Shown here: one piece after another, positions 91-64,000 of the stretch
Position numbering within the stretch: position 1 is the first letter of the stretch
How the letters are laid out: each line of letters starts with the position of its first letter
From: a bacterium
GTDB lineage: Bacteria > Patescibacteriota > UBA1384 > CAILIB01
Reading direction: 5' to 3'
Length of the DNA: 64,000 bases
Assembly (NCBI GenBank): GCA_037131105.1
Contig: JBAXRQ010000001.1
Span: forward strand, 322,039 to 386,038
The notes under the pieces: generated by a model
Told to the model about the DNA's origin: nothing
What the model saw: the letters and a program-made list of their open reading frames with translations, nothing else
Databases searched by the model: none
Position numbers and translations under genes: made by a program

Positions 91-1254
91 CTAGAAAAGG
101 GCGGCGAGCAGCTGCATGGCCGCCTTGGTCTGGGACCAGTCCTGAGGCTCGTAAGTAGTCTCGAGGCTGTTGATATACGAAGTGTGGTCTGTGGACCCGG
201 GCCGCAGCTTGAGCTGGGTAATGAAGCTGGTGACGTCCAGGGGGTCCAGCAAGGTCTGGATGACCGGGGAGCCGGTGACGGCTCTTTCAACTATGGCAAC
301 AAATTCAGGCCGTTGATCGGCGGGGAGAAGGTTAAGTTGCTCCCATAGTTGTTCCTGAGCACTACCATTGGTGATGAGCTGTGGAGTTAGGACAGAAGTT
401 ATCTTCTCAAACTGGCTGAAGTCGATCTTCTCACCAGCATTGCGTACAAAGAAGGCCGCATCGGCCTTGCGTAAGAATTCAACTTCCTTGTCAAAGCGAA
501 GATAGTCCCAGAAAAGGGTGCAGTACAGCTCAGTGTCGTCTGGACCTCCAGTTCCGCCCATGGCTGTCAGAAATTCGAGCACATTCTCTAGTGACTGGAA
601 CAACACGAAGCTTTCCTCGCCGATACGCTGGCCTGCCGCCTGCTCCTTGTATTCGACGGGGAAAAAAGGAATCTGAGACATGAAGTCCATGACCTCCTTC
701 TTCATGGCAGTGGTGGGAACGACTGGGGTGAAGTTGTTTTCAGTGAGCAGGTCGGTAATCTTGTCTAGCAGTTCGGAAGCTTTTTTGAGTAGGTTGGGGA
801 GGGCCTCAGAGTCAAGCGAGGCATGGATGAAGGACTTAAGATATAAGAAATCCCGGTCATAATGAGGGGCTGCAAGCAAGAGAAAGCAACTATGCCAGGC
901 ATCCGTAAGATTCGCTGCCTGTATGGGGTCCAAGGGAGCAAGAGCGGTTGCGGTAAGGGTGGGGTACAGTTTTTGGTAATGGCCGATTACAGAGGTTGAA
1001 TTATACTTGCCAAGGGCGTTAGCAAGGCTGATTAAACCCGAAGGAGGAACTAATTCTGAAAGGTTGGTATCAAATGATGTACGGATAAGCCTGCCGATTC
1101 TTAATAGTATTTCGTGGGGAAGAAGGTTCGTCAAATCAGCAAAGAGGTCCTTATCTTTATCCTGTATGGTGCGGGCATATTCCAATAGGTCCTCGGGTGA
1201 GGCAGTGGGCAGCCAGGAAGCAAGCTCGATAACAAGGGAGGAAGGATCGGTCAC
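91..1254 (-). CDS. hypothetical protein (387 aa), translationally coupled partner of the giant membrane protein upstream
   Basis: Long ORF with a GTG start overlapping the stop of the upstream gene (GTGA overlap at 1251-1254). No recognisable motifs and no TM segments. Confidence 0.55.
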   Translation of the reverse strand: MTDPSSLVIELASWLPTASPEDLLEYARTIQDKDKDLFADLTNLLPHEILLRIGRLIRTSFDTNLSELVPPSGLISLANALGKYNSTSVIGHYQKLYPTLTATALAPLDPIQAANLTDAWHSCFLLLAAPHYDRDFLYLKSFIHASLDSEALPNLLKKASELLDKITDLLTENNFTPVVPTTAMKKEVMDFMSQIPFFPVEYKEQAAGQRIGEESFVLFQSLENVLEFLTAMGGTGGPDDTELYCTLFWDYLRFDKEVEFLRKADAAFFVRNAGEKIDFSQFEKITSVLTPQLITNGSAQEQLWEQLNLLPADQRPEFVAIVERAVTGSPVIQTLLDPLDVTSFITQLKLRPGSTDHTSYINSLETTYEPQDWSQTKAAMQLLAALF

Positions 1255-4200
1255 GCGCGTGCGTTATGGACGAGTGAAGGGGACCCAGACGCCTGTTTGT
1301 CCATGTTGATGTGGTTGACGTCGTAATCTTGTGTGATCTTGTTCCACAGATCTCGCTTCCCTCCCTTTCCCGGCCCTTCGTGACCACTTCCTATTGCTTC
1401 GACCCTAGTGATAAAGGTGTCGACATTCGCGGCTCCTCCTGCTGCCATCTCAATCTTTCTTTTAGCGGCTGCAGCCTCTGGCCGGGTGTCAGTCATAATG
1501 TTTCGCAAGCCGCCTGTAAAGGCCTCAACCTGTTTCTTTTCAAGCTTCCCCTCCTGCAGGCCCTTGGTAAAGGCGTGGAAGCCTACTTCTACATCTGGCT
1601 TTAGGTCGGCTGTGTCGCCTCCTAGCAGCTTCGCAAACTCCGTATGGCTTCCTTTAGGCATGAGGTCCTTTATAAGCTTGCCTTGCTCTAGGCTATCGGC
1701 TCCTTCAGCCTTGATGTAGCCGTTGCTCTTTTTCCCAATACGCTTCTCATACATTTCCAGTTCTTCATCTTTTAGTCCGATGTAGTCTTCTTTGGTCGCC
1801 TGGCGTGTCTCTTCAAGCCGGCCTAAAAGGGCGATGTTGGTGCTACGGTGACCTGCCGCCATGCCGCTTATCTCAGTGTCCATTCCATCATAGATTGTAC
1901 TGTTCTTTGTATCGATAGCCTTTAGCTGCTGGGTATAATGTCTCATCTGTGAGATGTCCTCGGCGGTGTGGTTGTCCTTTGCGAAGAGGTCCTTCAGGGA
2001 TTTTGAGTACTCAAGAACTTTCTGCTGTCTGAGAGCCTGTTCATTCTGGGTCTTTTCCTCGCCCTTTGCACGCATCTCTTCCCCAAGGCCCTGCTGCAAC
2101 ATCTGGTTTTTTAGAGTCTCTGCCTCTTTCTGCGCTTCAGCTATCTCGACCGGGTCGGTAAGGTCTTTGGCGGGGTTCTTGAGGAAGTTGTTCAGCTGCA
2201 TGGTCTTAGCTGTCTCAGCTTGTTCGGCTTTGAACTTTGCAGTAATGCCCTCTTTTCTTAGCGTCAGATACTCCTTTTTAAGGCGGGCGCTTTCATTCTT
2301 TTTGGTGCGCACCCCTTCCATCCAGTTCGCGTCAGACATCGTCTTGATTTCCTTCTCTGACTCAAGGTCAGCCAGCGCCTGCTGATAGTCTCCCTTGATG
2401 AGGTTGTCGCTACTTCGGTTTGCTTCCCAGCGGGTAGAGGCTTTCTCCGCATTCGTTTTATCGAGCTTGCTTTGCTGGAATTCCTTCGCCAAACGCTTGT
2501 TGTTATCCTTTCGAGTCTTGATCTCTTCCTTTAAGGCGTCATTGAGATTTGCCAGGGTCTCCTTCCGTATTTCGATATCTGCGGCCTGCTTTTTAAGGCC
2601 ACGACTCTTGCTAATAGACTCATTCATAAGCTCTTCTTCATCAAGCTTCAGCCGCTCCTGCTTGTTTTTGGTTGCAGCCTCCGAACGGGCAAAGGCACGG
2701 TTTACCAGTTTGCCCGGACCGACCTTTGCTAGGGCTCCCTTGACGACGGGTCCTTCCATAACCATTTTATTTCGTGCGTTCATGTTCTCCACAACTTTGC
2801 CATAGCCTCTTCGTACTGTTCCTGCAGGTGTGTAACGGTTTGCAGCGTTGCGCCCGTATTCATTCCACTTGTCCAGCACTCCCTTCGCTTCACCGGCCAG
2901 ACTGAACGGCGTCTTAATGGCAAAGTAGAGACAGACGATACCGAAGGCATAGCCGAGTATACCGGCGAGCGGTGCGTCGGCGCTGCCCAGCACCCCTGCA
3001 TTTACCGAACTTGCCCAGACTAAGGAAAGCCAGATCCAGAACCCAGCTGCCAGCGGCATGATCAGCCAGCCCTTCATCAGGCCCCACCAGCGCTTCCAGA
3101 CCGCCTCCAATGGACTAAAGAAGGCACCCATGGCAGCAAGCGGCGCCATAGGGACCATGACGTAGAAGATGATGCGCCGGACCAGCATCAGGAACGCTAC
3201 AATCAACAGCATTACTGCGGCGACGACGGTGAAGATGTTGAGAAGAGTAAGCTTGAAGATCTTACTGAGGTCTACATTGCTGTTGGCCTGGCACTTCTCG
3301 GTCATCCAGGCGGCGTTTGCATTGGGTAGACAGCTGACCGACCCACCTACGCCTCCTGCGATAGACTTAATACCTTCTGGGAAGCCGCTGTACTGATTTA
3401 CGAAGGACTCAAAGGAGGGGGCGGTGCCTTGCTGCGTACCTATCCCTATAAGTCCACGGGTAAGCTGCCCCACCACCTCCAAACTGGCGCGTACGCCGAA
3501 GAATGAGAAGTGAGCGACGATGAAGCCGATGATCAGGGCCGGTATCAGCTTGTTGATGGCGTAGGTATTGACTTGAATCTGCAGCAGGTTGGCCAGGGCG
3601 ATAAGGACAAGGCCTAGCACGAGGACGACGTTCAGGAACTGGAGGACCCGGTTATAGGCGTTCTGGACCAGGGCTCCGATGCCGCCGGGGGTATTGTCTA
3701 TCAGCTGCTGCTCGATAGGGGTGGTCATAAAGTTGAGGAAGTCGGGATCAGTCAGATATGCACTAATTGTGTTAGCTGTGCCGGCACCCTGTGGGCGCTG
3801 GATCATGTCTGCGCTATCGGCGAGAAAGAGGGCGGAAGTGTTTATGAAAAGCCCTGCGATGTCGTGGCCGATTACCGCGGCATTGCAGATGGCCCGCAAG
3901 TAGAAGTTGACGCTGAGCGGGGTGCCGTTGCCACCGCAGGGGCCACTGCTGGCATCACCGGTCACTGTTCCGATTTTTGGCTCGCCTGCAGCCACCTTTG
4001 CGGCAGCGTCAGTTAGTGTTTTGGTCAGTGCCTCTGGAGTTGCACCATTAGCTGACTCGGTCTGAGTCTGCAGACTGATAACCATATCTCGGATCGGCTG
4101 GTAGATGGTATAGAAGCTACCGAGGTCGGAGTAGGGGGTGTAAGTCCCGGTGGTTTTGGTCCACTCCACACCAACGCTTCCATCCTTGAGTAGGGTCTGT

Positions 4201-5174
4201 AGGTTGGCTGGGTCAGCATGGAGGTAAGCATAGGAGGACTCAAGATCTGTGATGAGCTTGGTGATCACCATTGCGGTGAAGGTGCTGTCTGAGTTGATGA
4301 TCTGGCTTACATCAGTTCTCCACTTGTCCTTGCCAGTTGCATCCTTAGGACTGTTCAGAAGTGTATAGATTTTGCCTAGCACGAAGCCTTGTTGGTTAAT
4401 CTGGGCAATGTCTTCACAGGTGGAGCCTCCGGTTTTTAGAAGTCCGCACGTCTCGCTGCGGGCCGCACTGTCCTTTAAATGGCCGACGAGATAGTCGTCG
4501 AACAGCTGTTTCCCGGCTCCATTTGCTTTTACGGTTCCCCCCGTACCAGAAGCCGCCGGAGTGTAGTCAAAATAGAAACCATTTACTGCAGTTGTAGTGC
4601 CAGCTTTTACCTTGACGAGGTCGGCAATGAGACCGGTTCCCCCGCCACCCGCGCCAAGACGCTCCAGAAGATTCCTCCAGTGGTTCTGGACGCTTTGCTG
4701 GCGGTACTGGGCAAGGATTACCCAGTCAGCCGCTCCGTTATAAAACTCCTGGGTAGTGTTGTTATTGTTGGGAGGATTCTCTGAGGTAAGTACGGGCTTG
4801 GTAGGTGCTTTGGAGAGTGCACTGAGCTTGGTTGTAATGGCGGTATAGGCAGCTGGTCCGTTGGAGAGGCCTCCGACAAAGAGAAGGGCCAAGGGCCCCA
4901 GAAGGACTTGCTTTGCAGCGAAATCCTTAAAGGCGGTGTTACATGTTACGTTGCAGCTCAGCCAGTTTGTGAACTGCTGCTGGGTTGCCGGCGTGGCAGT
5001 GAAGCCACCAATAGAAAGCCCACCGCTAGGGACCACTCCGCCACCGGGGAGACCAGTTGAAGGGGTGTTGGTATCGGCATGTGCGGTTGAGGGAACAAAC
5101 GCACCTACAAATCCGCCTACTGAGATAAGCAGTATTACCCAGGAAAGAATGATCGTACGCCCCCAATGGATCAT
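1251..5174 (-). CDS. giant (1307 aa) membrane protein. Signal peptide and ~500-aa extracytoplasmic domain, then a ~6-7 TM VirB6/TrbL-like core, then a ~600-aa K/E-rich coiled-coil tail. Possible type IV secretion / conjugation component
   Basis: N-terminal hydrophobic signal (ILLISVGGFVGAFVPSTAHA). Cluster of TM helices (LIVAFLMLVRRIIFYVMVPMAPLAAMGAFF..., LIMPLAAGFWIWLSLVWASSVNAG..., AFGIVCLYFAIKTPF). Very long charged C-terminus rich in KEE/KKE heptad-like repeats. Confidence 0.7.
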   Translation of the reverse strand: MIHWGRTIILSWVILLISVGGFVGAFVPSTAHADTNTPSTGLPGGGVVPSGGLSIGGFTATPATQQQFTNWLSCNVTCNTAFKDFAAKQVLLGPLALLFVGGLSNGPAAYTAITTKLSALSKAPTKPVLTSENPPNNNNTTQEFYNGAADWVILAQYRQQSVQNHWRNLLERLGAGGGGTGLIADLVKVKAGTTTAVNGFYFDYTPAASGTGGTVKANGAGKQLFDDYLVGHLKDSAARSETCGLLKTGGSTCEDIAQINQQGFVLGKIYTLLNSPKDATGKDKWRTDVSQIINSDSTFTAMVITKLITDLESSYAYLHADPANLQTLLKDGSVGVEWTKTTGTYTPYSDLGSFYTIYQPIRDMVISLQTQTESANGATPEALTKTLTDAAAKVAAGEPKIGTVTGDASSGPCGGNGTPLSVNFYLRAICNAAVIGHDIAGLFINTSALFLADSADMIQRPQGAGTANTISAYLTDPDFLNFMTTPIEQQLIDNTPGGIGALVQNAYNRVLQFLNVVLVLGLVLIALANLLQIQVNTYAINKLIPALIIGFIVAHFSFFGVRASLEVVGQLTRGLIGIGTQQGTAPSFESFVNQYSGFPEGIKSIAGGVGGSVSCLPNANAAWMTEKCQANSNVDLSKIFKLTLLNIFTVVAAVMLLIVAFLMLVRRIIFYVMVPMAPLAAMGAFFSPLEAVWKRWWGLMKGWLIMPLAAGFWIWLSLVWASSVNAGVLGSADAPLAGILGYAFGIVCLYFAIKTPFSLAGEAKGVLDKWNEYGRNAANRYTPAGTVRRGYGKVVENMNARNKMVMEGPVVKGALAKVGPGKLVNRAFARSEAATKNKQERLKLDEEELMNESISKSRGLKKQAADIEIRKETLANLNDALKEEIKTRKDNNKRLAKEFQQSKLDKTNAEKASTRWEANRSSDNLIKGDYQQALADLESEKEIKTMSDANWMEGVRTKKNESARLKKEYLTLRKEGITAKFKAEQAETAKTMQLNNFLKNPAKDLTDPVEIAEAQKEAETLKNQMLQQGLGEEMRAKGEEKTQNEQALRQQKVLEYSKSLKDLFAKDNHTAEDISQMRHYTQQLKAIDTKNSTIYDGMDTEISGMAAGHRSTNIALLGRLEETRQATKEDYIGLKDEELEMYEKRIGKKSNGYIKAEGADSLEQGKLIKDLMPKGSHTEFAKLLGGDTADLKPDVEVGFHAFTKGLQEGKLEKKQVEAFTGGLRNIMTDTRPEAAAAKRKIEMAAGGAANVDTFITRVEAIGSGHEGPGKGGKRDLWNKITQDYDVNHINMDKQASGSPSLVHNARA

Positions 5175-5256
5175 CTGTGGAGAAGGAATAGTTATTCCTT
5201 TCCATTGTAATCCCTAGGGCGCACAATACGCAACGTAAGATGTCGCGCAGCCGTAC

Positions 5257-5463
5257 TTAGGCGACCGGCTTCTTGGAGCGGGCGAGACCTCCCCGCCTGC
5301 CGGCTTCCTTAGCCTCCTCGGCCGTCCACTGGTGGGCGGTACCGCGGGCATGGGCGGCTTGGCCTCCGCGCTTGGCGATTTCCTTCTGCTTGGTGGGGTC
5401 CATCGAGGCGAATCCTCTCCTTTTGGCTCCTGATTGGTTGGATTCCATAGGTTTTTTCTTCAT
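5257..5463 (-). CDS. KGG-repeat stress-induced protein (68 aa)
   Basis: C-terminal 68 aa of the 202-aa ORF is MKKKPMESNQSGAKRRGFASMDPTKQKEIAKRGGQAAHARG...EAGRRGGLARSKKPVA with the KGG/RGG 'stress-induced acidophilic repeat' pattern (YciG-like). The internal ATG at 5461-5463 avoids the long Arg/Ser-rich upstream extension. Confidence 0.55.
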   Translation of the reverse strand: MKKKPMESNQSGAKRRGFASMDPTKQKEIAKRGGQAAHARGTAHQWTAEEAKEAGRRGGLARSKKPVA

Positions 5464-10934: not shown

Positions 10935-11633
10935 CTATTTTTCCTCTGTAGCTGCAGCCTCTTCGCCTTCGGCAGGAGCCTCGCCGCCGGTCTCAGCTGC
11001 GATGGCAGTGACGTCCGTAGCTTCAACGGCCTCATCAAGAGCGGCCAGTTCCTCTTCGGAACGAGGAGCGGTAACGGAAGCGACCATCTCGTCCTCGTCG
11101 TCCAGGATCTCGATGCCTGCAGGGGCCTTGATGTCCTTGACCCGGATATCGTCTTCAAAGGTGGCGAGTACTGAGATGTCGACTTCGATGCTGTGGACTA
11201 GGTCCTGAGGTAGACACTCGACGTTTACCATTGCCTTGACGGTGGAAAGGCTTCCGCCCTCTACCTCGACGGCAGCGGACTCACCAACGAACTCGAGTGG
11301 GATCTCGGTCTGTAGCTTCTCCTTCATGTTCACCGTGTAGAAATCGGCGTGAACTAGGCGGGAAGTGGTAGGGTCCAGCTGGAGATCGTGGATCAGTACC
11401 TTGTGGGCAGCTTTCCCGTCAACCTTCAGATCAACCAGGGTGCTGGAACCAGCGGACTTCCATACGGCTAGCAGCTCGCGGGCAGGTACGGAAATAGAAA
11501 GGCTCTCCTGGCCGTGTCCGTAGACAACTGCAGGAATCTGGCCCTTGGAACGAAGCTGACGAACCTGCTTGCCGATAACAGTACGCAGGTCGGCGCTCAG
11601 GGTAGGAGTGGTGGTGTCGTGAGTGGAGGTCAT
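10935..11633 (-). CDS. rplY: 50S ribosomal protein L25 / general stress protein Ctc, with acidic Ala/Glu-rich C-terminal tail
   Basis: ...RQLRSKGQIPAVVYGHGQESLSISV... matches L25/Ctc N-terminal β-barrel. Confidence 0.85.
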   Translation of the reverse strand: MTSTHDTTTPTLSADLRTVIGKQVRQLRSKGQIPAVVYGHGQESLSISVPARELLAVWKSAGSSTLVDLKVDGKAAHKVLIHDLQLDPTTSRLVHADFYTVNMKEKLQTEIPLEFVGESAAVEVEGGSLSTVKAMVNVECLPQDLVHSIEVDISVLATFEDDIRVKDIKAPAGIEILDDEDEMVASVTAPRSEEELAALDEAVEATDVTAIAAETGGEAPAEGEEAAATEEK

Positions 11634-11685
11634 ACCAATAGAAAAAGGGCGAGATGCCCCGGAGGCTTAGGGGTGAATAAGAACG

Positions 11686-11913
11686 TTAGCGAGACCCAAA
11701 GGCCTTAATGTAGTCGCCATCAAACTTCTCGAGGGCGTCATGCAGGCTTATGATGTCATTGGCACCGATAGGGGTGCCCTCTTCAGGAAGCTCCTGGCGC
11801 TGGGCCGAGGTGTTAAAATGGACCAGGACTGAGATGCTGACCGGGACCTCCCCATCGGAGTTGACCAGTTGGAAGTGGTGAAACTCCCCCTGAGGCATCA
11901 TTTCCTCATTCAT
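11686..11913 (-). CDS. hypothetical small protein (75 aa)
   Basis: ORF only; no motif. Confidence 0.3.
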   Translation of the reverse strand: MNEEMMPQGEFHHFQLVNSDGEVPVSISVLVHFNTSAQRQELPEEGTPIGANDIISLHDALEKFDGDYIKAFGSR

Positions 11914-11995
11914 CGTGGCTTCGCTTACCTATATGGCAGTATCATAGGTGAAATAGGAGTGGAAGTCAATGTTCCATCTCTTGTGCCGAGTCATT

Positions 11996-12080
11996 GGCTG
12001 CCCTCAAAAACCATTGAGACGTATTCCGAAGGAATACTGTTAGACAGGCTCCCTTGAGTCGAAGGTTTTTGAGGGCAGCC
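11996..12080. repeat. perfect 17-bp inverted repeat (ggctgccctcaaaaacc / ggtttttgagggcagcc) with ~50-nt loop containing an inner 7-bp hairpin, immediately 3' of uvrB
   Basis: Read directly from the sequence. The right arm abuts the uvrB stop codon. Confidence 0.6.
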
Positions 12081-15000
12081 TATGACTCGAGTTCTCGGAT
12101 TTGGTCTCTGAGCTTAGCTGCCCCCTCATAATCCAAGTGTAATGCGGCCTGGGCCATCTTGTCGCGCAGCTCTTCCAGATAGAACTTCTTCTCCATGGGC
12201 TTCAGCCGGTTGTACATGGCCTTCTCCTCGGCAACAGTAAGAGTCTCGTGGCTAGGTAAGGCGATAGTAATTGGCTTGTTCAGCAGCTGAGGCACGATTC
12301 CGTGCTCCACGTTATAAGCCTTCTGAATGGTGCGGCGGCGGTCGGTCTCATCGATAGCTCGACGCATGGAGCCGGTGATGTTGTTGGCGTACATGATGAC
12401 TCGTCCCTGGGGGTGGCGGGCGGCCCGGCCGATGGTCTGAATAAGTGAGGTCTCTGAGCGCAGGAAGCCTTCCTTGTCAGCGTCCAGTATGGCGATAAGG
12501 CTCACTTCGGGTAGATCCAGACCCTCGCGCAGCAGGTTGATACCCACCAGTACGTCATAGGTGCCTAGGCGCAGGTCCTGAAGGATCTGGGAGCGGTCCA
12601 AGGTCTTTACGTCGGAGTGCAGGTACTGGACCTTGATGTTTCGGTCCTGCAGGTACTCGGTGATGTCCTCGGCCATGCGCTTGGTGAGGGTAGTGACCAG
12701 GGTGCGCTCGTGTCGCTCGATGCGTATTGCGATTTCCTTGAGAAGGTCGTCTATCTGCCCGTCGATGGGCCGTATCTCGATCTCCGGGTCGGGGATGCCA
12801 GTAGGACGAATTAATAGCTGGGCTACCAGATCCACCTTCTTATCTTTTTCCAGACGGGTCTCCTGGGTCTCTACTTTTACCTTCTCCAGTTCGTACTTGC
12901 CAGGGGTAGCCGACACATAGACTGCCTGGCCGCGGCGCTCCTCAAACTCAGCAAAGGTCAGGGGGCGGTTGTCTTTGGCACCCTTCAGGCGGAAACCATA
13001 GTCCACCAGGGTATTCTTGCGGGCCTGGTCGCCGTTGTACATGCCGCCGATCTGAGGGATGGTCATATGTGACTCATCCACAAACAGTAGGAAATCGTCC
13101 GGGAAATAGTCCAACAGTACCGACGGGGGAGTGCCGGGCGCGCGCCGGTCAAAGTAGCGCGAATAGTTCTCGATGCCGGAGCAAGATCCGGTCTCGCGAA
13201 TCATTTCCAGGTCGAAGGTGACCCGCTGCTTCAGCCTTTGGGCTTCTAGCAGCTTGCCGTGGGCTTCGAAGTCAGCCACCTCGGCTCGCATGTCCCGTTC
13301 AATCTCGGCTAGGATCTCTGGGCGGGCGGTCTCTTCGGTCAGGAAGTGCTTGGCGGGAAATATCTCCACCTCGTCCACGCTCTCCAGTGACTTCTGGGTG
13401 ATGGGATCTATGAGATCAATACTCTCCACCTCGTCGCCAAACTGTACTATCCTGATCTGGTAATCCTCATAAGCCGGAAAGATGGTGATGGTGTCACCCT
13501 GCACCCGGTAGCGGCCGCGGGAGAGATCAATGTCATTTCGCTCATACTGCACATCGGCCAGCTTTCGGGTGAACTGGCGCTGAGGCAGCTGCTCGCCCTT
13601 CTTTACCGTGATATTGGCAAGGCGATAAACGTCAGGAGAGCCCAGACCGTAGATGCAGGAGACCGATGCAACGATGATGGTGTCCCGACGGGTAAGTATG
13701 GAGTGGGTGGAGGCGTGCCGGAACTTCTCGATCTCCTCGTTAATGGCCGAGTCCTTCTCGATGTAGGTGTCGGTCATCGGGATGTAGGCCTCCGGCTGGT
13801 AGTAGTCGTAGTAGGAGACGAAGTACTGGACGGCATTATCCGGGAAGAATTCCCTGAATTCGGCAAAGAGCTGGGCGGCCAGGGTCTTGTTGTGGGCCAT
13901 GACAAGGGTTGGGCGCTGCAGCCGCTCGATGGCATTAGCCATGATGAAGGTATTGTGAACAAAGAGCCCTCCCCGTCCTGTCATAAAGGTCTCAAGTCCA
14001 GGTACGCTAAAATCATACACATACGGGTGTAAAGGTTTTGTCGGTTCGCAAGATGCTATTGGGGACCAGTGAAGCCTGGTTAGTCCCAAGAGTTCTTCGT
14101 CCTTAACGTCTAGAGAGGCGCATATACGCTCAAAAAGTGTCCGAGAAGGATTTCGAATGCCTACTTCGATAGCTGAGATCATGGTGCGGGTGCATCCTGC
14201 TTTTAGGGCGACATCGCGTTGGAGGAGTCCTGCTTCCTGTCGTAATGTCAGGAGTCGCTTTCCTACTCCATACACCAGGTCAACATTGGTGTTCCCTGAC
14301 TTAATCTGCCTGAGAAGTGCGGCTGATTTTCTCGGGCTAATAAAGCCTATCTTGTATGCGAAAGCTCTAAGGTTGTCCTGCCCGCTAATGGTTATCAGAT
14401 GATACATACCACGAGTTCCATCTGGTTTTAGCTTGCTTACCGGCCTGAACCGTGCCCATATGCCAAACCGTAACAGTGCCTCGGCTATATCACTGGCTAG
14501 TTCCGGGCTAAGGGTTACGGCGGTTACGGCCCCCTTTTCAACTCCACCATCTCCCTCAAAGTAGGCAGAAAGAAGCTTGGCTAGGAACTTATTGGAAAAA
14601 GAGGGCCATAAGCTCGGTAGGCGCTTGTTATGGGCATGGGTGCCCATGTGGCTAGATAGTAGGTCTCTCCAAGAACGAATCCCGATTCTATAGTCACCTG
14701 TTTCTTGGAGCCCGAACGGGATGTTCAGCTCCTTGAGGCATCTCCCTACCTCGGCATGGACATAAGGGTCACGAACAGTAATCTGGGAGCCTCCTATAGA
14801 ACAATGGCCCTCAGCGATATACTGGCCAAAAATAGTGGCAACGGCTGGCGTAAGCGGAAGTGTCACAGGCTCGCTATGGATCTTGCCCTTCAGGCTAATC
14901 TCAAAAGGTTTAACAATGTTGCAGGCCAGAAGCTGCCTGGCAGCGGAGAGGTGTACTCCTTCATTAAAGCGGACAACCCGGTATGCTTTGGCATTAGGAT

Positions 15001-15631
15001 GTTCATAATGCCCTGCCAATATGTGGGCAAGGATAGGCTGAGAACGTACTGCCCCACGGAGCTGCACTCCTACGTTTTCAGAGGTGATCTCGTCAATGAG
15101 GTTCAGTGCGGTTAAGGGTCGCGGGGGTTCTGGCAGTAAAGCTGGTACTGGCAGCGCATCAGTTTCTCTGACTTGGCTTCCTTCAACAAGGCAAAGATGT
15201 CCGTCACGTAGTACCCAGACGCTATGGTCACCAGTTACGGTCACGGTTCTACCGCAGCTGGTTGTCAGCCTAAATAACTGGTCAGGAGAGGCGTGGCGGC
15301 TAAGTACGCTGATTTGCTCCCAACTGGTTTTACCAGTCTTAACATCCCAGGACATAACTTCCCATGTACGAGATGGGGCAACTGCGGCTGATTCGTTTTG
15401 TCGGAAGCCTTTTAGGTGTTGGTCGATAAGAAGTCCGATTGGTCCACGATAGGGACGTCCGTCGATACGCACTGTAACTGGTTCATCCCAGGCTACGCTC
15501 TTTCCCGTTCCTGTGGCTCCTAGCAGTACCTGAGACTGGGCTCCGGCCTCGACATTATTCACTATCTGTTCGATAGCGCTAGGTTGGTCGCCGTCGGGTG
15601 TGAAAGGAGCCTTTAGGTTAAAGCGCTTCAT
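12080..15631 (-). CDS. uvrB: excinuclease ABC subunit B containing a 516-aa intein (1183-aa precursor; mature UvrB ~667 aa)
   Basis: N-extein ...LLGATGTGK is interrupted after the Walker-A lysine. C-extein resumes [56 protein letters not shown]... and continues through the UvrB helicase motifs to a UvrC-binding C-terminus. AGGAGG RBS. Confidence 0.9.
13952..15499 (-). mobile_element. UvrB intein (Ser1 ... His-Asn/Thr+1) carrying a LAGLIDADG homing endonuclease and an embedded XRE-type HTH
   Basis: Begins [14 protein letters not shown]... and ends ...GGLFVHN followed by +1 Thr. LAGLIDADG-like blocks [12 protein letters not shown] and [12 protein letters not shown]. Cro/C1-type HTH ...[36 protein letters not shown]. 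Confidence 0.8.
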
Positions 15632-16004
15632 ATGCCTCCTTAATCTGGTCTAGCTTGTCTATCGGAATAATGGCGGCAGCGTAGCAGTCGATGTCAGTAT
15701 CGCCGGTGGACTCGGAGAAGCATACCGGTATCTTCTGGGCCAGGCAGTAACCCAGCTCGATCTTCACGCTGGTGCCCATGTAGCCTTCGGGAAGGATAAA
15801 GTAGGCTGCGTCAGCCTGTTCGGCCGCCTCATAGTGCTCCATGGCCAGGCGCAGCTTGTGGGCTGCGTCCAGGGCCTGATCGGTATTGCCGACCTCCAGG
15901 TCTAAGTTTGGGAATAGGGGAGTGATGCCCAGCTTCTCAAGAGCCGACATAGTGGCAGCTATCTTGCCTCTAAACTTGACGCTGGCGCAGACCAATACCT
16001 TCAT
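15618..16004 (-). CDS. nucleoside 2-deoxyribosyltransferase-like protein (128 aa)
   Basis: [11 protein letters not shown]...[26 protein letters not shown] resembles the Rossmann-like deoxyribosyltransferase family signature (GT.FELGYA..GKPV). 14-nt overlap with the uvrB start (coupled). Confidence 0.45.
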
Positions 16005-37584: not shown

Positions 37585-37952
37585 GGCGCTTCCAACCATC
37601 CAAGGCAGTCGCTTTTCGGGAAACCGACGAGAGGAAAGTCCGGGCAGGCAACAGCGACGGTAGTCGGGAAATCCGACCGGGCGTGAGCCCCGAGACAGTC
37701 GCAACAGAAAGCAAACCGCCAGCGGCCCGAAAGGGTGCGGGCAAGGGTGAAACTGTGTGGTAAGAGCACACACGGCCGCCAGGTGACTGGCGCCGCGGTA
37801 AACCTTACCGGCCTGCAAGGTGGGTTGGGCTGGACGGCATAACTCAGCTGGAGGTGTCGAACGGATCCCACCGCGTAGATAGATGGCTGCCGCGTCGCAT
37901 TACCGAGAGGTGGCGGCGTACAGAACCCGGCTTATTAAGATGATTGGAAGCA
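37585..37952 (+). ncRNA. rnpB: RNase P RNA, bacterial type A
   Basis: Hallmark P4 sequence GAGGAAAGTCCGGGC near the 5' end and ACAGAACCCGGCTTA at the 3' end. P1 pairing between cttccaaccatc (37589-37600) and gatgattggaag (37939-37950). Ends approximate (+/-10 nt). Confidence 0.85.
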
Positions 37953-43562: not shown

Positions 43563-43637
43563 TGGGGAGTGGCCAAGTGGTAAGGCAGTGCCCTTTGAAG
43601 GCATGTATCGAAGGTTCGAATCCTTCCTCCCCAGCCA
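43563..43637 (+). tRNA. tRNA-Gln (anticodon TTG), CCA encoded
   Basis: TGGGGAGTGGCCAAGTGGTAAGGCAGTGCCCTTTGAAGGCATGTATCGAAGGTTCGAATCCTTCCTCCCCAGCCA. U1:A72 pair, D-loop GCCAAGYGGUAAGGC and T-arm GGTTCGAATCC closely match bacterial tRNA-Gln. Anticodon loop CT-TTG-AA. Confidence 0.85.
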
Positions 43638-57522: not shown

Positions 57523-57984
57523 ATGTCTATGTTTAAAGAAGGCACGGGTTTCTCAGCTGGAGGAGCAGAAGTCGGACCTGAGGCATTTGAGGAGCATATT
57601 CAGGGACTTGCTGATGATTTTGAGGTGGAAGAGGAGTGGACCTCGCGCTTGAATCCTGATGTTATCCGAAGAGACCTTGAGGACGCTTCGATTATTATTA
57701 GCCAAGGCACAGGCGGCGTCGACCGTACCATGAATATACCCTTAGAAAGCGCTCGTCGAGCAGTCGCCCAAGAAATAATAGAAGTAGGCAGCGGAGCTGG
57801 CGGCTTTGTGCAGGACTATATGAGGCACGCTGCCAACAGTGCAAAAAAGAGCGCCTTGGTAAAAGGCACCATAGTCGACTGGGTGCATTCAGTACTGCCT
57901 GAGGCGGACTATGACGGCGACAACATTAGTGAGGGCGGTGCTGCTTACTGGGCAGGCCGTGGACAGATCCGCAGCGGGGATTGA
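57523..57984 (+). CDS. hypothetical acidic protein (153 aa)
   Basis: ORF directly after ydeI-like gene; no motif. Confidence 0.45.
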   Translation: MSMFKEGTGFSAGGAEVGPEAFEEHIQGLADDFEVEEEWTSRLNPDVIRRDLEDASIIISQGTGGVDRTMNIPLESARRAVAQEIIEVGSGAGGFVQDYMRHAANSAKKSALVKGTIVDWVHSVLPEADYDGDNISEGGAAYWAGRGQIRSGD

Positions 57985-58030: not shown

Positions 58031-58345
58031 TTGCATATGACCATTAATGAATTTCAGCAGCATGCAGTCGGCACCGTGGCAATTACCGAAAAAGGAATCC
58101 CGGCTCTTACCCATCGCACCTTGGGCTTGACCGGAGCGGCTGGCATCATCGCCAATGAGACCAAGAAGGTGATCCGCGACAAGGCAGGCGTGGCTGACTC
58201 TGAGGACATGGAGGTGGTGAAAAAGCGGCTAGGAGACGTGCTGTACTACGCGGCAGTTCTGGCCGATTACTACGGCCTCTCGCTCTCCGAGGTCGCCGAG
58301 CAGAACATGGAGCAGTCCACTGCCTTTAAGGCGGATAGGGCCTAA
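58031..58345 (+). CDS. MazG-like nucleotide pyrophosphohydrolase (all-alpha NTP-PPase)
   Basis: ...LGLTGAAGIIANETKK...LGDVLYYAAVLADYYGLSLSEV matches the MazG/NTP-PPase EExxE..K...GDxLxxxxxLA pattern. Confidence 0.65.
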   Translation: MHMTINEFQQHAVGTVAITEKGIPALTHRTLGLTGAAGIIANETKKVIRDKAGVADSEDMEVVKKRLGDVLYYAAVLADYYGLSLSEVAEQNMEQSTAFKADRA

Positions 58346-58408: not shown

Positions 58409-59287
58409 TCACTGCGGGAGTGAGTCGAACAAATTCTTGGCGACACGGGCGGCCTCTTCGTTGCGCCGGGCGATGGTCCATGGCAGTGCGAAGAGGGTCT
58501 TCAGCATGCCGTAAATGTCGGACCATCCCATCTCCACTACCACTTCAGTGGCTTCACAGCCGGCGGCGAAGAGTAGTTCGATGGCTTTCCAGAAGGGATG
58601 GTTCTTACCGCCTGTCCGGAAATACCCCCAGTCCTTCTTTGCCTTGATCTGCCAGTGGATGATCTTGACCCACTTGGCTAGCAAGGCGGCTTGCTCCGGT
58701 GTCCAGCCCAGGTCAACTAGGATGTGGTGGGTGTCATACACCAGCCCTATCTGTCGGCCTTCTGCTTCCCATTTCTCGATCTGGGCGATCAGCGCTTCGG
58801 GACTTTCCCCGAGTGCTCCGAGATGAGGACTGACCTCAATGAGTTGGAGTGGACCCGCCGGTACCAGATCGATCTCGTAGGGACAGTGCACGATCTCTCG
58901 GACGTCGTCCTTTCGATTCTGGCTGTACCACTGGTTGGCAGACTCCTCATCGATGAAGGCGACAATCGCCATCTGGATGATACGGACCTCCGCGTTCAGT
59001 GCCTTCGGAAGCCGGTACATGATACCGCCTGCCGTCCGGTCATAGAGCCTGCCCGTATGGAATCTGAAGCCGTTTGGGACACTCCTTACCAGCTGGGCAA
59101 AAGGTTTCTCCATCAGTGCCGGCTTGGCGCTTCTGGGAAACCCGCGCACTGGCATGTCCTGTACTCCGTCCCAGGTGCGATTGAACACATCCTGGAGCTG
59201 AGAGTACCATTCCATCGCCCTAAAGAGCATCGTCCACACCCCCAGATAATTGAGGACTGACGAATATAGCTTAATTTCTCTTTTCAT
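58409..59287 (-). CDS. hypothetical protein (292 aa)
   Basis: Internal ATG (MKREIKLY...); the longer track ORF has a His/Pro-rich leader without an RBS. No secure motif. Confidence 0.45.
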   Translation of the reverse strand: MKREIKLYSSVLNYLGVWTMLFRAMEWYSQLQDVFNRTWDGVQDMPVRGFPRSAKPALMEKPFAQLVRSVPNGFRFHTGRLYDRTAGGIMYRLPKALNAEVRIIQMAIVAFIDEESANQWYSQNRKDDVREIVHCPYEIDLVPAGPLQLIEVSPHLGALGESPEALIAQIEKWEAEGRQIGLVYDTHHILVDLGWTPEQAALLAKWVKIIHWQIKAKKDWGYFRTGGKNHPFWKAIELLFAAGCEATEVVVEMGWSDIYGMLKTLFALPWTIARRNEEAARVAKNLFDSLPQ

Positions 59288-59500
59288 GTTATTCCCTTTC
59301 GACACTGCCTTCTCGGCACTAATGTCCGCCGCAGTGTAGCATAAAACCCCCAACCTGTCAATCAGGTAAGGAAAAAGGCCCGGCGTCGCCGCCAGAATAA
59401 TACAAGAAGAAAGTATGCTAACAACCTTACCCTTGACGACTTTGCTATGATGAATAGAGAGTCCTGCCATTGGCGGGGTATGTACTAATCTGGAGGCACC

Positions 59501-59686
59501 ATGAACAACAAAACCGTGTGGTACGTTGTCGGGGGGTTTGTAGCAGGAGTTCTGGTCGGATCCTGGATAGTAGGCGCCCAGTACCGGGGCATGGGCGGCA
59601 TGTGGGATGATATGATGCATCACACTACCTATTACGGGGCTACCCGGACCTCCAGCGGCGGCACCATGATGATCATCAGGAACTAA
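59501..59686 (+). CDS. small membrane protein (61 aa) coupled to the downstream permease
   Basis: GGAGG RBS; TM VWYVVGGFVAGVLVGSWIVGA; 9-nt gap to the permease gene. Confidence 0.4.
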   Translation: MNNKTVWYVVGGFVAGVLVGSWIVGAQYRGMGGMWDDMMHHTTYYGATRTSSGGTMMIIRN

Positions 59687-60886: not shown

Positions 60887-62332
60887 ATGTTCGAACAGGC
60901 CTTCAAACGCATCGACGACGTGCTCCGTAAGGATGCTGGTGCCTCCAGTGAGCTTGACTATGTTGAGCAGACCTCCTGGATCTTATTCCTCAAATATCTG
61001 GACGACTTGGAGAAGGACAAGTCTACCGAGGCAGCTTTGGCCGGCAAGGACTACAAGGCCATCATCGCCCCCGAATACCGCTGGGAAGTCTGGGCGGCTC
61101 CCAAGACTGCAGACGGCAAGCTTGACCACCATAAGGCGCTTTCCGGTGATGACCTGCGGGACTTCGTCGACCTGCAGCTTTTCCCGTACCTAAAGAAGTT
61201 CAAGAGCGAGGCCGAGGGCCCGGATACCATCGAGTACAAGATCGGGGAGATCTTTAGCGAGATCAAGAACAAGATCCAGAGCGGCTACACCCTGCGGGAG
61301 ATTCTGGACGTGGTGGACGACATGCGGTTCCGCTCCCAGGCCGAGAAGCACGAGCTTTCCAGCCTCTACGAGGGCAAGATCAAGAACATGGGCAACGCCG
61401 GCAGGAACGGCGGTGAGTACTATACGCCCCGGCCTTTGATCAAGACCATTGTTAAAGTGGTGGATCCCAAGATTGGTGACACTATCTATGACGGAGCCGT
61501 CGGCTCGGCTGGCTTCTTGGTGGAGGCCTACGAATACCTCAGGAGCAGCCGCAAGCTCTCTACCGAGGATGTCCAGACCCTGCAGAAGAAGACCTTCTAC
61601 GGCAAGGAGAAGAAGTCGCTGGCCTATATCATTGGGATCATGAACATGATTTTGCACGGCATCGAGGCTCCCAATATCCTGCATACCAATACCCTGGCCG
61701 AGAATCTGGCCGACATCCAGGAGAAGGACCGTTACGATGTAGTGCTGGCCAATCCGCCGTTTGGCGGCAAGGAGCGGACCGAGGTGCAGCAGAACTTCCC
61801 GATCAAGACGGGGGAGACTGCATTTCTTTTCCTGCAGCACTTCATCAAGATCATGAAGGCAGGCGGCAAGGGCGGCATCGTCATCAAGAACACCTTTCTT
61901 TCAAATACTGACAATGCCTCGGTTTCGCTGCGCAAGTATCTATTGGAAGGTTGTAACCTGCATACGGTGCTGGATCTGCCTGGTGGTGCATTCGTGGGGG
62001 CAGGTGTGAAGACGGTCGTACTGTTCTTTGAGAAAGGGGCACCTACCAAGAAGATCTGGTATTACCAGCTGAACCCGGGAAGAAACCTAGGGAAGACGAA
62101 TCCGCTGAATGAGAAGGACTTGACGGAGTTTGTGGAGTTACAGAAGACGAAGGGGGATAGTGAGAATTCGTGGAGTGTGGGAGTGAGGGATCTTAACAGG
62201 GAGACCTGGGATCTGTCAGTGAGGAACCAAGATGCACTCAAGGGAGTCGCCATACGAGACCCAGAGATGATTATAAAAGAGATAAGGATTCTGGATGAAA
62301 AAATCAGGGCTACTCTTGAGAGTATTATATGA
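60887..62332 (+). CDS. hsdM: type I restriction-modification system DNA methyltransferase subunit M
   Basis: N6-adenine MTase motifs: motif I in ...DPKIGDTIYDGAVGSAGFL..., motif IV NPPFG (VLANPPFGGKE). HsdM N-terminal domain. Confidence 0.9.
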   Translation: MFEQAFKRIDDVLRKDAGASSELDYVEQTSWILFLKYLDDLEKDKSTEAALAGKDYKAIIAPEYRWEVWAAPKTADGKLDHHKALSGDDLRDFVDLQLFPYLKKFKSEAEGPDTIEYKIGEIFSEIKNKIQSGYTLREILDVVDDMRFRSQAEKHELSSLYEGKIKNMGNAGRNGGEYYTPRPLIKTIVKVVDPKIGDTIYDGAVGSAGFLVEAYEYLRSSRKLSTEDVQTLQKKTFYGKEKKSLAYIIGIMNMILHGIEAPNILHTNTLAENLADIQEKDRYDVVLANPPFGGKERTEVQQNFPIKTGETAFLFLQHFIKIMKAGGKGGIVIKNTFLSNTDNASVSLRKYLLEGCNLHTVLDLPGGAFVGAGVKTVVLFFEKGAPTKKIWYYQLNPGRNLGKTNPLNEKDLTEFVELQKTKGDSENSWSVGVRDLNRETWDLSVRNQDALKGVAIRDPEMIIKEIRILDEKIRATLESII

Positions 62333-63414
62333 GTAAAGATGAAATAACAACCCAAACTCTTAAGGAGGGGGTGGCAAAGACTTCTACAATTAAACTAGGC
62401 AAAACGCCCGAGACTCGCATTACGTTTGAGGCACTAATCCATGAGAAGGGAGTGTCAGGCAAAATAATAAAGTACAAAAAAGATCGAAAAAGTGATTGGG
62501 ATAACCTCCAGAAAAGTGACTTTAGTAGTCATGCGCTGGATGTAATGGAGAAAGTGGAAATCCCAGTTTCTACCGATGAATTGTTAAAATTAATTACTGA
62601 AATTCAACTTAGATATAGAATCGCTGAAGGAGGAGTTAAGTCGGGTATACATTCATATATACCAGTCGAAAAAGACAGCTTTGTGCTTATTGATAATGAG
62701 AACATCAAGCAAATATTGGAGAGTGTCTTAATAAAAGGCTACTCAGATGATTTTTGGCAGTTGCTTTCCGCCTCTGAGCCAGACTTGGCAAATAGACTAT
62801 CGGCGGGTCAACTGCAACTTCAAAGGGAAAAAATTGTAAAAGATTTAGAGCGGCGTTTACTTTTAAGGTTTTCAGAAACAAACGGTAATGACTCGTGGCA
62901 AAGATGGATTCATGCGAATAACTGGTTATTTGGAATCAATTATCAAAAGCCTATCGAAAAAGAAAAAATAAATATTTCCGGTGTTATGCCAGACTTTCTT
63001 TTTCCAACAGTGGATGGGTTCATCGACATTCTGGAAATTAAACTTCCAGAAGATGAGGTGATTTCCTCAGATGGTAGCCATCAGGGTGCTTGGAAATGGA
63101 CGGCGGCGAGCAATACAGCGATTGGCCAGGTTGTAAACTATCTTTCTGAGATAGATCGTATGAGTTCTGAAATAGAAAACAATATTCGGAGAAAATACGA
63201 GCTGGAAGTTTCTTGCTTGAAGCCCCGAGCACACATTCTAATAGGAAACTCTCAGGATTGGAAAATGGAAAAAAAAGAGGGCTTAAGAAAGCTGAATCAT
63301 TCACTCCACGGAATAGAGGTAATAACATATTTCGATCTTATCCAGCGCGGCAAGAGTTTTTCAAAAAGCCCGGTTGCTGGTGTTCGAACAGATATTGATA
63401 ATTTGCTCTCCTAA
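62329..63414 (+). CDS. DUF4263 (Shedu/SduA-like) PD-(D/E)xK nuclease-family protein inserted between hsdM and hsdS
   Basis: AT-rich gene overlapping the hsdM stop by 4 nt. C-terminal nuclease core ...GVMPDFLFPTVDGFIDILEIKLPEDEV... (D ... D-x(n)-E-I-K), as in Shedu C-terminal domains. Confidence 0.55.
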   Translation: MSKDEITTQTLKEGVAKTSTIKLGKTPETRITFEALIHEKGVSGKIIKYKKDRKSDWDNLQKSDFSSHALDVMEKVEIPVSTDELLKLITEIQLRYRIAEGGVKSGIHSYIPVEKDSFVLIDNENIKQILESVLIKGYSDDFWQLLSASEPDLANRLSAGQLQLQREKIVKDLERRLLLRFSETNGNDSWQRWIHANNWLFGINYQKPIEKEKINISGVMPDFLFPTVDGFIDILEIKLPEDEVISSDGSHQGAWKWTAASNTAIGQVVNYLSEIDRMSSEIENNIRRKYELEVSCLKPRAHILIGNSQDWKMEKKEGLRKLNHSLHGIEVITYFDLIQRGKSFSKSPVAGVRTDIDNLLS

Positions 63415-63416
63415 TT

Positions 63417-64000
63417 ATGGCCTGGACGAAACTAACATTAGGGGAAGTTTGTGAAACGATGTTTCGAGGAGCCTCTCCTATATATTCTGAGAAAGCTGGC
63501 GTTTATGTTTTAAATCAAAAATGTATTCGCAATCATGTAATAGATTACTCATTCGCGAGGATGCATGATGCTGAGGCTAAGCCACCAAAAAGTTGGCAAT
63601 ATATCCGGACAGGAGATGTCTTGGTTAACTCCACAGGTACGGGTACCTTGGGAAGGCTGGCTCAAGTGGATGCTTCTCCACTTGTGGCGGTTGTTGACTC
63701 ACATATTACAGTGATTAGGCCAAAGAAGGGTTCTTTTGATGATGATTTCTTCGGGTGGCTGCTTAGGGGGGCTGAAGAAGAGATAGCATCAAAAGGTGAG
63801 GGTGCAAGTGGGCAGACTGAGTTGTCTCGTAGTGCTTTGAGTAATGTCATAATATCCTTTCCTGAGTCAATAAAGGAGCAGAATAGAGTTGTGAACATAT
63901 TGGGTAACGCTTTCCAGAAGCTGGATAGAGCTAAATCTGATATAGAAATGAATCTCCGGAATACGCGTGAGATATTTGATGTCTGCGTTCAAAATTATTT
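63417..64000 (+). CDS. hsdS: type I restriction-modification system specificity subunit S (5' part; continues beyond window)
   Basis: MAWTKLTLGEVCE...GASPIYSE...VLVNSTGTGTLGRLA... is an HsdS target-recognition-domain signature. Starts 3 nt after the DUF4263 gene stop. Confidence 0.85.
   Translation, partial: MAWTKLTLGEVCETMFRGASPIYSEKAGVYVLNQKCIRNHVIDYSFARMHDAEAKPPKSWQYIRTGDVLVNSTGTGTLGRLAQVDASPLVAVVDSHITVIRPKKGSFDDDFFGWLLRGAEEEIASKGEGASGQTELSRSALSNVIISFPESIKEQNRVVNILGNAFQKLDRAKSDIEMNLRNTREIFDVCVQNY

Follow-up and report, generated by a model that had tools for sequence, protein, structure and literature searches.

Shedu is an anti-phage system whose nuclease, SduA, has been studied in Bacillus cereus and Escherichia coli, and genes of this kind are known to occur inside restriction-modification (R-M) loci. 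The survey of Gu et al. (10.1101/2023.08.10.552793, Supplemental Fig. S8) placed 602 of 5,499 Shedu genes, about 11%, within R-M systems of Type I, II, III or IV, a share that the available portion of the preprint text does not split by subfamily. Here, we describe an sduA gene that lies inside a Type I R-M operon in a 64,000 nt stretch of DNA from an uncultivated bacterium (the window). The window sduA is one more case of a published pattern, in which Shedu genes are found in R-M loci and defence genes are embedded in Type I operons. The arrangement has already been reported for hundreds of Shedu genes and is of low novelty; our addition is a modest one, namely a census of the R-M share of one SduA subfamily, together with evidence from GC content at third codon positions (GC3) for a probable sduA-hsdS cassette. 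The reading that we consider likely is of a Type 1A Shedu nuclease that serves as a self-contained defence layer, and whose gene is co-transcribed with a complete Type I system and belongs to a low-GC cassette.

The sduA gene and its operon

The sduA gene (62329..63414, forward strand) has the Type 1A architecture and consists of 361 codons plus stop, from an ATG start to a TAA stop at 63412–63414, exactly as the ORF had been described in the initial annotation. By comparison with 519 homologs the ORF is complete, and one and the same protein sequence is encoded by four independent assemblies, which excludes an assembly artefact; NCBI annotates the identical protein as an SduA domain-containing protein. 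Upstream lies hsdM (60887..62332, forward strand), encoding the 481 aa methyltransferase subunit of a Type I R-M system, which is recognized by Pfam (N6_Mtase, 6.2e-60; HsdM_N, 2.5e-08) and, over its full length, by the PADLOC MTase_I model PDLC03021 (2.1e-155). Downstream lies hsdS, the gene of the Type I specificity subunit, which is cut by the window end after its first 194 codons (63417..64000, forward strand; Pfam Methylase_S, 3e-08; PADLOC Specificity_I, 1.7e-30). The complete HsdS, taken from locus L002, is a protein of 394 aa with two target-recognition domains, matched by Methylase_S in two stretches (9.6e-27). The window also contains RNase P RNA and one tRNA, and no rRNA was found within it.

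The initial annotation had proposed that the gene is embedded in a Type I operon and had asked whether hsdR follows hsdS. The order hsdM-sduA-hsdS was confirmed, and on a 391 kb contig of the same genome hsdS is indeed followed by hsdR (771 aa; PADLOC REase_I, 3.5e-141; Pfam HSDR_N_2/ResIII/EcoEI_R_C). The locus thus encodes together the components of a Type I R-M system: HsdM, HsdS with two target-recognition domains, and HsdR with a nuclease plus an SF2 motor. All four genes, in the order hsdM-sduA-hsdS-hsdR, lie on one strand, and are separated in turn by a 4 nt overlap, a 2 nt gap and a 12 nt gap. The first of these was as annotated, with the TGA stop of hsdM inside the ATGA at 62329–62332; the second had been given as 3 nt, but the hsdS ATG begins at 63417 and the actual spacer is 2 nt, a spacing shared by the genes as called in L002 and L003. 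Both junctions of sduA are of the translational-coupling type, and from this arrangement we propose that the gene is co-transcribed with the complete Type I system. A consensus scan of the operon for promoters and terminators gave counts not above those of shuffled sequence (for terminator-like sites, 11 found versus 7.1 ± 2.7 expected), and is therefore uninformative on internal signals.

Family membership, domains and predicted activity

The assignment of the protein to DUF4263 and Shedu, initially made by eye, was upheld by profile searches. Pfam SduA_C (PF14082, DUF4263) matches aa 189–337, corresponding to model positions 6–158 of 159, at 65.8 bits (gathering cut-off 27; E = 6.7e-18), and also matches all 46 aligned homologs. 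The 2023 PADLOC SduA model PDLC00390, which covers the full length of the protein, aligns aa 10–348 with its positions 9–337 of 339 (E = 1.9e-98), and 16 further PADLOC SduA models match as well; NCBIfam held no model matching the protein. The comparison of a predicted structure with SduA, suggested at the same time, pointed the same way, as the predicted fold matches the solved SduA structures 8PS4/8PS5 and 8TI8/8TI9. A single-sequence phmmer search of the PDB returned only a marginal match to E. coli SduA (E = 0.23) and missed B. cereus Shedu, and a family profile, rather than the single sequence, was needed to recover the latter at full length: profile positions 2–345 align with residues 4–378 of B. 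cereus B4264 Shedu (8TI8_A; E = 1.6e-25), with the N-terminal domain and the linker covered. It is this full-length alignment that identifies the predicted protein as Type 1A (Gu et al.). The initial annotation had suggested a divergent N-terminal domain and an uncharacterized Shedu subtype, an idea that was not supported and that we reject, in view of the end-to-end profile alignment, the matches of Pfam SduA_N to 20 of the 46 family members (E <= 1e-3, best 3.3e-08) and the full-length PADLOC model. As judged from sequence, the window protein is a genuine and ordinary SduA nuclease of a known kind.

The predicted N-terminal domain (aa 1–110; 62329..62658, forward strand) is defined by Pfam SduA_N, the profile alignment and the predicted structure. 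[quoted passage not shown] In the predicted structure, which has a mean pLDDT of 84, residues 1–110 are modelled as five β-strands, a long helix at 82–100 and a short strand at 107–110, and the B. cereus domain is itself predicted to be sPC4/Whirly-like, with a β-β-β-β-α order (Gu et al., 10.1101/2023.08.10.552793). Residue R29 of the B. cereus domain is essential for immunity, according to the same authors; it aligns with R30 of the window protein, in a column that is variable within the window protein's own family. The N-terminal region had initially been described as long and α-helical, which does not agree with this β-rich model, and the helical part is confined to about residues 126–176, in the linker (aa about 111–180; 62659..62868, forward strand). 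This segment, delimited by the predicted structure, aligns with the B. cereus linker, defined as residues 118–170 (Gu et al., 10.1101/2023.08.10.552793), and is where the model is least reliable, with pLDDT 57–66 at aa about 111–150.

The remainder of the protein is the SduA_C/DUF4263 PD-(D/E)xK nuclease domain (aa about 181–346; 62869..63366, forward strand). The restriction-endonuclease-like core originally noted here, acidic residues followed by E-I-K, is present as PDFLFPTVDGFIDILEIKLP, and five candidate catalytic residues of the domain are invariant across the 46-homolog alignment. On the forward strand, these are E183 (62875..62877), an acidic candidate for motif I; D222 (62992..62994), the motif II aspartate within PDF; E236 and K238 of the motif III sequence E236-I237-K238 (ExK; 63034..63042); and Q267 of motif IV (63127..63129). 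In the profile alignment, the B. cereus counterpart of D222 is D249 (chain D251), those of E236 and K238 are E264 and K266, and that of Q267 is Q295 (AVTQVLTY), the catalytic roles of the B. cereus residues being those given by Gu et al. (10.1101/2023.08.10.552793). The motif I assignment is ambiguous, as B. cereus E204 falls opposite N187, four residues downstream of E183, in a gapped HMM alignment.

These features bear on the idea that SduA has no part in defence, either as a repair nuclease resembling NucS/EndoMS or as a decaying, inactive gene that arrived with an exchanged hsdS cassette. We regard this as the least probable of the readings considered, and a highly improbable one: SduA structures score about twice as well as NucS, the catalytic positions are all intact in an ORF of full length, the identical sequence recurs in the four assemblies and the genomic context is one of defence genes.

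The protein shares the three-part architecture of B. cereus B4264 Shedu, in which a β-rich N-terminal domain and a helical linker precede the DUF4263 PD-(D/E)xK nuclease. By analogy with the B. cereus and E. coli proteins (Gu et al., 10.1101/2023.08.10.552793; the available part of Loeff et al., 10.1101/2023.08.10.552762), it may form an autoinhibited homotetramer, restrained by the N-terminal domain and the linker. Upon infection, the N-terminal domains would recognize a nucleic-acid feature associated with the phage, such as single-stranded DNA or the free ends of linear DNA, after which the nuclease would be free to nick or cleave the DNA of the invader. The oligomeric state, trigger and substrate put forward here are extrapolated from homologs at about 15–20% identity over structurally aligned regions.

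Probable cassette origin and association with R-M loci

The AT-richness of sduA relative to the surrounding chromosome, remarked on from the start, proved to be strong. The GC content is 0.37–0.41 in sduA and 0.39–0.46 in hsdS, whereas hsdM stands at approximately 0.55 and window positions 1–60886 at 0.548, and the break is sharp at third codon positions, with GC3 values of 0.37 for sduA and 0.40 for hsdS versus 0.77 for hsdM codons 1–380 and 0.65 for hsdR. Within hsdM, GC3 drops to 0.58 over codons 381–481. Composition profiles and GC3 per gene thus delimit a low-GC block (62080..64000, no strand assigned) comprising the last approximately 100 hsdM codons, the whole of sduA and the whole of hsdS, which extends approximately 600 nt past the window end, up to the hsdS/hsdR junction. 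Because sduA and hsdS lie so far below hsdM and hsdR in GC3, and because the hsdM-sduA difference is far smaller, only 0.07–0.15, in the relatives L008, L010 and L056, we propose that the sduA-hsdS block was probably gained as a cassette when an already established hsd operon recombined. Against this, AT-richness is a frequent intrinsic property of hsdS genes. Comparison of the hsdM 3′ end with low-GC relatives revealed no donor or breakpoint: the 3′ end is not closer to these relatives than the rest of hsdM is, and the protein is simply conserved least at its C-terminus. The GC3 break bears on the shuffling of defence modules, as the embedded gene and hsdS look exchangeable as one cassette.

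In our census, R-M loci hold 12 of 25 family members of the same architecture, versus 3 of 26 relatives whose N-terminal domains are of other kinds (Fisher p = 0.006); the set of 25 plus 26 loci is small and includes short contigs, and the statistics ignore phylogeny. This suggests that the subfamily is R-M-associated above the rate for all Shedu, and with 12 of the 25 members in such loci the co-location may be more than passive. Members in R-M loci often have reading frames that overlap or abut those of their neighbours, and the closest relative (L056) has the same 4 nt hsdM/sduA overlap. The partners are diverse, comprising two Type I families, Type II AlwI, a Type III-like pair and a fused enzyme, and the place of sduA within Type I operons differs, being M-sduA-S in some and S-sduA-R in others. 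At more than half of the family loci examined, hsd genes are absent: close relatives stand alone among housekeeping genes (P0004/L057 and P0005/L058), and others adjoin unrelated defence genes, including GmrSD, AbiEii and DarT. In L056, L057 and L027, the genes of approximately 220–243 aa that come immediately after sduA were considered as a conserved partner and rejected, as they have no detectable similarity to each other or to the window.

One way to account for the association is that SduA works in sequence after the Type I enzyme. HsdR would translocate and cleave phage DNA that lacks the modification, creating free ends or single-stranded regions that the SduA N-terminal domains sense, whereupon Shedu would amplify restriction by cutting the linear fragments further. 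The translational-coupling-like junctions, with the overlap repeated in L056, are consistent with such a coupled system, as is the census share when set against 3 of 26 and about 11% for all Shedu; the sensing of free DNA ends is described for E. coli SduA in the available part of Loeff et al. (10.1101/2023.08.10.552762), and Gu et al. (10.1101/2023.08.10.552793) raise the possibility that Shedu is a specific complement to R-M or BREX. However, close relatives occur alone, partner types and operon positions vary, the census has the limits given above, and B. cereus Shedu (Gu et al.) and E. coli Shedu (the available part of Loeff et al.) are protective as single genes. We therefore rate coupling of this kind as rather unlikely, and are similarly doubtful of its wider form, in which the Type 1A-like subfamily would be specifically adapted to R-M, with a sensor triggered by restriction-made DNA ends or ssDNA in a two-step ‘cut, then shred’ response. 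If that reading were true, R-M plus Shedu would be one pathway, not two independent layers. The seemingly unusual R-M association would make this subfamily a good model for testing cooperation between Shedu and restriction.

The position of sduA exactly between hsdM and hsdS also recalls prrC of the EcoprrI locus, likewise an embedded gene, whose product is activated when T4 Stp inhibits the enzyme (EcoSal review, PMC12707154); PrrC occurs almost only as an embedded component of Type I R-M (Payne et al., 10.1101/2024.01.29.577857). By this precedent, SduA would be kept inactive by contact with HsdM2S and unleashed when an Ocr- or Stp-like anti-restriction protein of a phage inhibits the Type I enzyme. 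Shedu, however, has an autoinhibitory N-terminal domain and linker of its own, the B. cereus protein is regulated without a partner (Gu et al., 10.1101/2023.08.10.552793) and more than half of the loci lack hsd genes, all of which makes such guardianship very improbable. Since close relatives stand alone or beside unrelated defence genes and the operon position is variable, SduA is most likely a self-contained second defence layer, inherited and expressed together with the R-M system and physically independent of it.

Comparison with known systems

The closest described protein over its whole length is B. cereus B4264 Shedu (8TI8, 8TI9), with which window SduA shares about 16–20% identity over structurally aligned regions. 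The B. cereus protein is slightly longer (about 380 versus 361 aa), and octamer-based activation belongs to its side of the comparison; unlike it, window SduA sits inside a Type I R-M operon. With E. coli SduA (8PS4/8PS5), for which DNA-end sensing has been described (Loeff et al.), the family profile aligns over the nuclease domain only (profile positions 183–345), and because the N-terminal clamp domain of that protein has no detectable sequence homology with the family, its end-clamping mechanism is not simply transferable. NucS/EndoMS and the cleavage domains of FokI and N.BspD6I score much below SduA, and differ in domain context and biology.

PrrC in EcoprrI, TgvAB in the Type I R-M system of Vibrio cholerae VPI-2 and the ‘guilt-by-embedding’ candidates of Payne et al. 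(2024) are likewise accessory defence genes that lie between hsd genes and are co-expressed with them. As proteins and in mechanism, PrrC, an anticodon nuclease, and TgvAB, a GmrSD-like Type IV system, are unrelated to SduA, and Pfam, PADLOC and NCBIfam searches gave no match of window SduA to PrrC. PrrC is regulated by the R-M complex, whereas SduA has only the embedded position in common with it. With the Shedu genes found within R-M systems by Gu et al. (2023), the window arrangement is the same in kind, and represents one more instance.

Family, fold and architecture of SduA

The 361 aa product of sduA (62329..63414, forward strand, ATG to TAA) belongs to the Shedu family, as the initial annotation had proposed from its DUF4263-like core. 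Pfam SduA_C (PF14082, DUF4263) matches aa 189-337 with 65.8 bits against a cut-off of 27, and the PADLOC SduA model PDLC00390 aligns aa 10-348 to model positions 9-337 of 339 (E = 1.9e-98). Sixteen further PADLOC SduA models also match; an NCBIfam search gave no match. A search of 5.8 billion proteins returned 519 homologs at E <= 1e-5; most are 347-368 aa long and align with 93-100% of the query. The same protein, letter for letter, is encoded in four independent assemblies, and the NCBI entry with the identical sequence is named 'MAG: Shedu anti-phage system protein SduA domain-containing protein [bacterium]'.

The catalytic residues D222, E236, K238 and Q267 are intact; an alignment of 46 of the 519 homologs (45-62% identity to the query) shows no variation at these four positions or at E183. 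The AlphaFold2 model built from this alignment has a mean pLDDT of 84, and its top nine Foldseek matches in the PDB are all solved Shedu structures (E. coli 8PS5/8PS4 and B. cereus 8TI9/8TI8; E 2.7e-08 to 2e-05).

The N-terminal region, previously described as long and alpha-helical, is modelled instead as a set of five beta-strands within 6-50, with a long helix at 82-100 and one short strand after it; a helical linker (126-176) leads on to the nuclease domain. Pfam SduA_N (PF21407) covers aa 17-105, nearly the whole model, at 23.8 bits, just under its gathering score of 27, and matches 20 of the 46 family members at E <= 1e-3. Against B. cereus B4264 Shedu (8TI8_A), the 46-sequence profile aligns in a single stretch (profile 2-345 to chain 4-378, E = 1.6e-25) that spans the N-terminal domain (NTD), linker and nuclease, whereas E. 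coli SduA aligns over the nuclease domain only. This full-length alignment argues against the divergent N-terminus and possible new subtype suggested in the initial annotation, and on the same grounds the protein is placed in Type 1A as defined by Gu et al., the largest Shedu class with 1,684 instances (10.1101/2023.08.10.552793).

Chain D251/E266/K268 of 8TI8_A are D249/E264/K266 of Gu et al., so chain numbering is native +2. B. cereus motifs II-IV align with D222, E236, K238 and Q267, and R30 aligns with R29 of the B. cereus NTD, mutation of which abolished immunity (Gu et al., 10.1101/2023.08.10.552793). The motif I residue E204 is placed opposite a position four residues downstream of the invariant E183, which leaves the motif I assignment ambiguous. 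B. cereus Shedu is an autoinhibited tetramer, released via the NTD and linker, with an active octamer (Gu et al., 10.1101/2023.08.10.552793). By analogy with its homologs, SduA would form an autoinhibited tetramer, its NTD would sense nucleic acid, and the enzyme would cleave phage DNA.

A complete Type I operon of mixed composition

Upstream of sduA lies hsdM (60887..62332, 481 aa; Pfam N6_Mtase 6.2e-60 and HsdM_N, PADLOC MTase_I 2.1e-155), whose TGA stop falls inside the ATGA that holds the sduA start. Downstream, the sduA TAA (63412-63414) and two bases precede the ATG of hsdS at 63417, an ORF that runs off the window end; the spacer is therefore 2 nt and not 3 nt as first noted, the placement being otherwise accurate. 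The last 10 kb of the window is 100% identical to L001, a 391-kb ENA metagenome contig of the same genome. On L001, L002 and L003, HsdS, identified by Pfam and PADLOC, is 394 aa long with two Methylase_S stretches, and a 12-nt gap separates its gene from that of a 771 aa HsdR (PADLOC REase_I 3.5e-141; Pfam HSDR_N_2, ResIII, EcoEI_R_C). The hsdR gene, raised by the initial annotation as a possible neighbour, thus follows hsdS, and sduA lies between the M and S genes of a complete Type I system.

On L001, hsdS spans 11089-12273, while one gene call (11293-12273, 326 aa) starts 68 codons downstream; in the Logan and JGI calls the protein has 394 aa, with the underlying sequence identical and only the choice of start codon different. 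The long form starts 2 nt past the sduA stop and takes in the first target-recognition domain. In a consensus scan of the operon, terminator-like and promoter-like sites were no more frequent than in shuffled sequence.

The AT-richness reported for sduA is borne out (GC 0.37-0.41, against about 0.55 in hsdM and 0.548 over window positions 1-60886). GC3 falls from 0.77 in hsdM codons 1-380 to 0.58 in codons 381-481, is 0.37 in sduA and 0.40 in hsdS, and returns to 0.65 in hsdR. In three related operons (L008, L010, L056), hsdM and sduA differ in GC3 by just 0.07-0.15; against these, the sharp steps mark the window operon as a mosaic. The low-GC region runs from 62080 to 64000 and on to about 12270 of L001, leaving an sduA-hsdS block of about 2.5 kb between host-like hsdM and hsdR, which suggests that recombination in an already established hsd operon brought the block in as a replacement cassette. 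No donor for such a cassette was identified, and comparison with related operons placed the C-terminus of HsdM no nearer to low-GC relatives than the rest of the protein.

An ArsP-type permease gene lies upstream of hsdM and an NYN-domain gene (183 aa, L001 region 14734-15806, past the window end; Pfam NYN 3.3e-14) downstream of hsdR. The latter has weak PADLOC matches to NYN (1.2e-06) and HEC-09 (7.9e-05), a candidate of Payne et al. (10.1101/2024.01.29.577857), and may be another gene of this island with a defence or toxin function. Two small ORFs without matches follow it, where GC is intermediate (about 0.48). The remaining flanking genes gave no defence matches. Just upstream of the permease and operon, ORFs at 58409-59623 (reverse strand, 404 aa), 57523-57984 (forward, 153 aa) and 58031-58345 (forward, 104 aa) have host-like GC and no Pfam or PADLOC match at E <= 1e-3. 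Rfam matches in the window comprise only a bacterial class A RNase P RNA (37593-37950, forward, 186 bits) and one tRNA (43563-43634, forward), with no rRNA.

SduA beside restriction-modification genes

A scan of one genome per GTDB species yielded 51 loci, whose neighbours were annotated by tblastn with two Type I families and Pfam; SduA matches the query from the N-terminus at 25 and in the nuclease domain only at 26. Type I hsd genes lie on the same strand within about 4.5 kb at 10 of the 25, ordered M-sduA-S (L008, L010), sduA-S-R (L022), S-sduA-(x)-R (L016, L018, L019, L021, L030) or with another gene between (L024, L017). At one further locus (L020) sduA follows a Type II AlwI pair, and at another (L005) a 1,249-aa fused HSDR_N_2, N6_Mtase and Methylase_S enzyme. 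Restriction-modification (R-M) genes occur near 3 of the 26 nuclease-domain-only loci, against these 12 of 25 (Fisher p = 0.006, uncorrected for phylogeny and with several contigs short). Other neighbours include GmrSD, AbiEii, DarT, YhcG nuclease and reverse transcriptases.

Of the four closest relatives whose context was examined, P0003 (64% identity) repeats the order hsdR-hsdM-sduA and the 4-nt hsdM/sduA overlap, with three small genes and then hsdS downstream. P0021 has genes for an N6_N4 methylase and a ResIII helicase as neighbours, and P0004 and P0005 occur by themselves, surrounded by housekeeping genes.

In a Gammaproteobacteria MAG (L008 2703-5227) and a Candidatus Roizmanbacteria MAG (L010 1012-3523), sduA directly follows an hsdM whose product is 70-75% identical to that of the window, while the SduA proteins are just 49-57% identical; this joining of hsdM to sduA is thus shared across phyla, and the pair either evolve at unequal rates or have undergone recombination. 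The L005 enzyme (496-5346) is a fused R-M enzyme of Type IIG/ISP-like form that carries HSDR_N_2, N6_Mtase/Eco57I and two Methylase_S domains on one polypeptide; its gene lies 7 nt upstream of one for an SduA 60% identical to that of the window. Relatives' Type I operons also hold a RhuM-family gene between hsdM and hsdS (L018 4465-5502), an SMC/ABC-type ATPase gene between sduA and hsdR (L019 5036-6568) and an AAA_16 ATPase gene upstream of sduA (L022 7962-9305).

Given that some relatives lack R-M neighbours, and that both the type of R-M partner and the place of sduA within operons differ between loci, SduA most likely acts independently, as a second defence layer co-inherited and co-expressed with the R-M system. 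The most interesting reading of the link, if true, would be functional coupling, in which Shedu senses DNA ends or ssDNA left by Type I cleavage. Loeff et al. (10.1101/2023.08.10.552762) show that E. coli SduA uses its N-terminal clamp to bind free DNA ends and place the DNA for nicking. The same variation in partners and positions speaks against coupling, which we consider unlikely. A guardian role like that of PrrC, whose gene is embedded in EcoprrI (PMC12707154), is more improbable still.

[quoted passage not shown] Embedded defence genes in Type I operons are well known, among them tgvAB in V. cholerae VPI-2 (PMC11411939), and have been surveyed systematically by 'guilt-by-embedding' (Payne et al., 10.1101/2024.01.29.577857). 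The initial reading of a Shedu gene within a Type I operon was right in substance, and SduA is a typical representative of a known family, in a setting that has already been reported.
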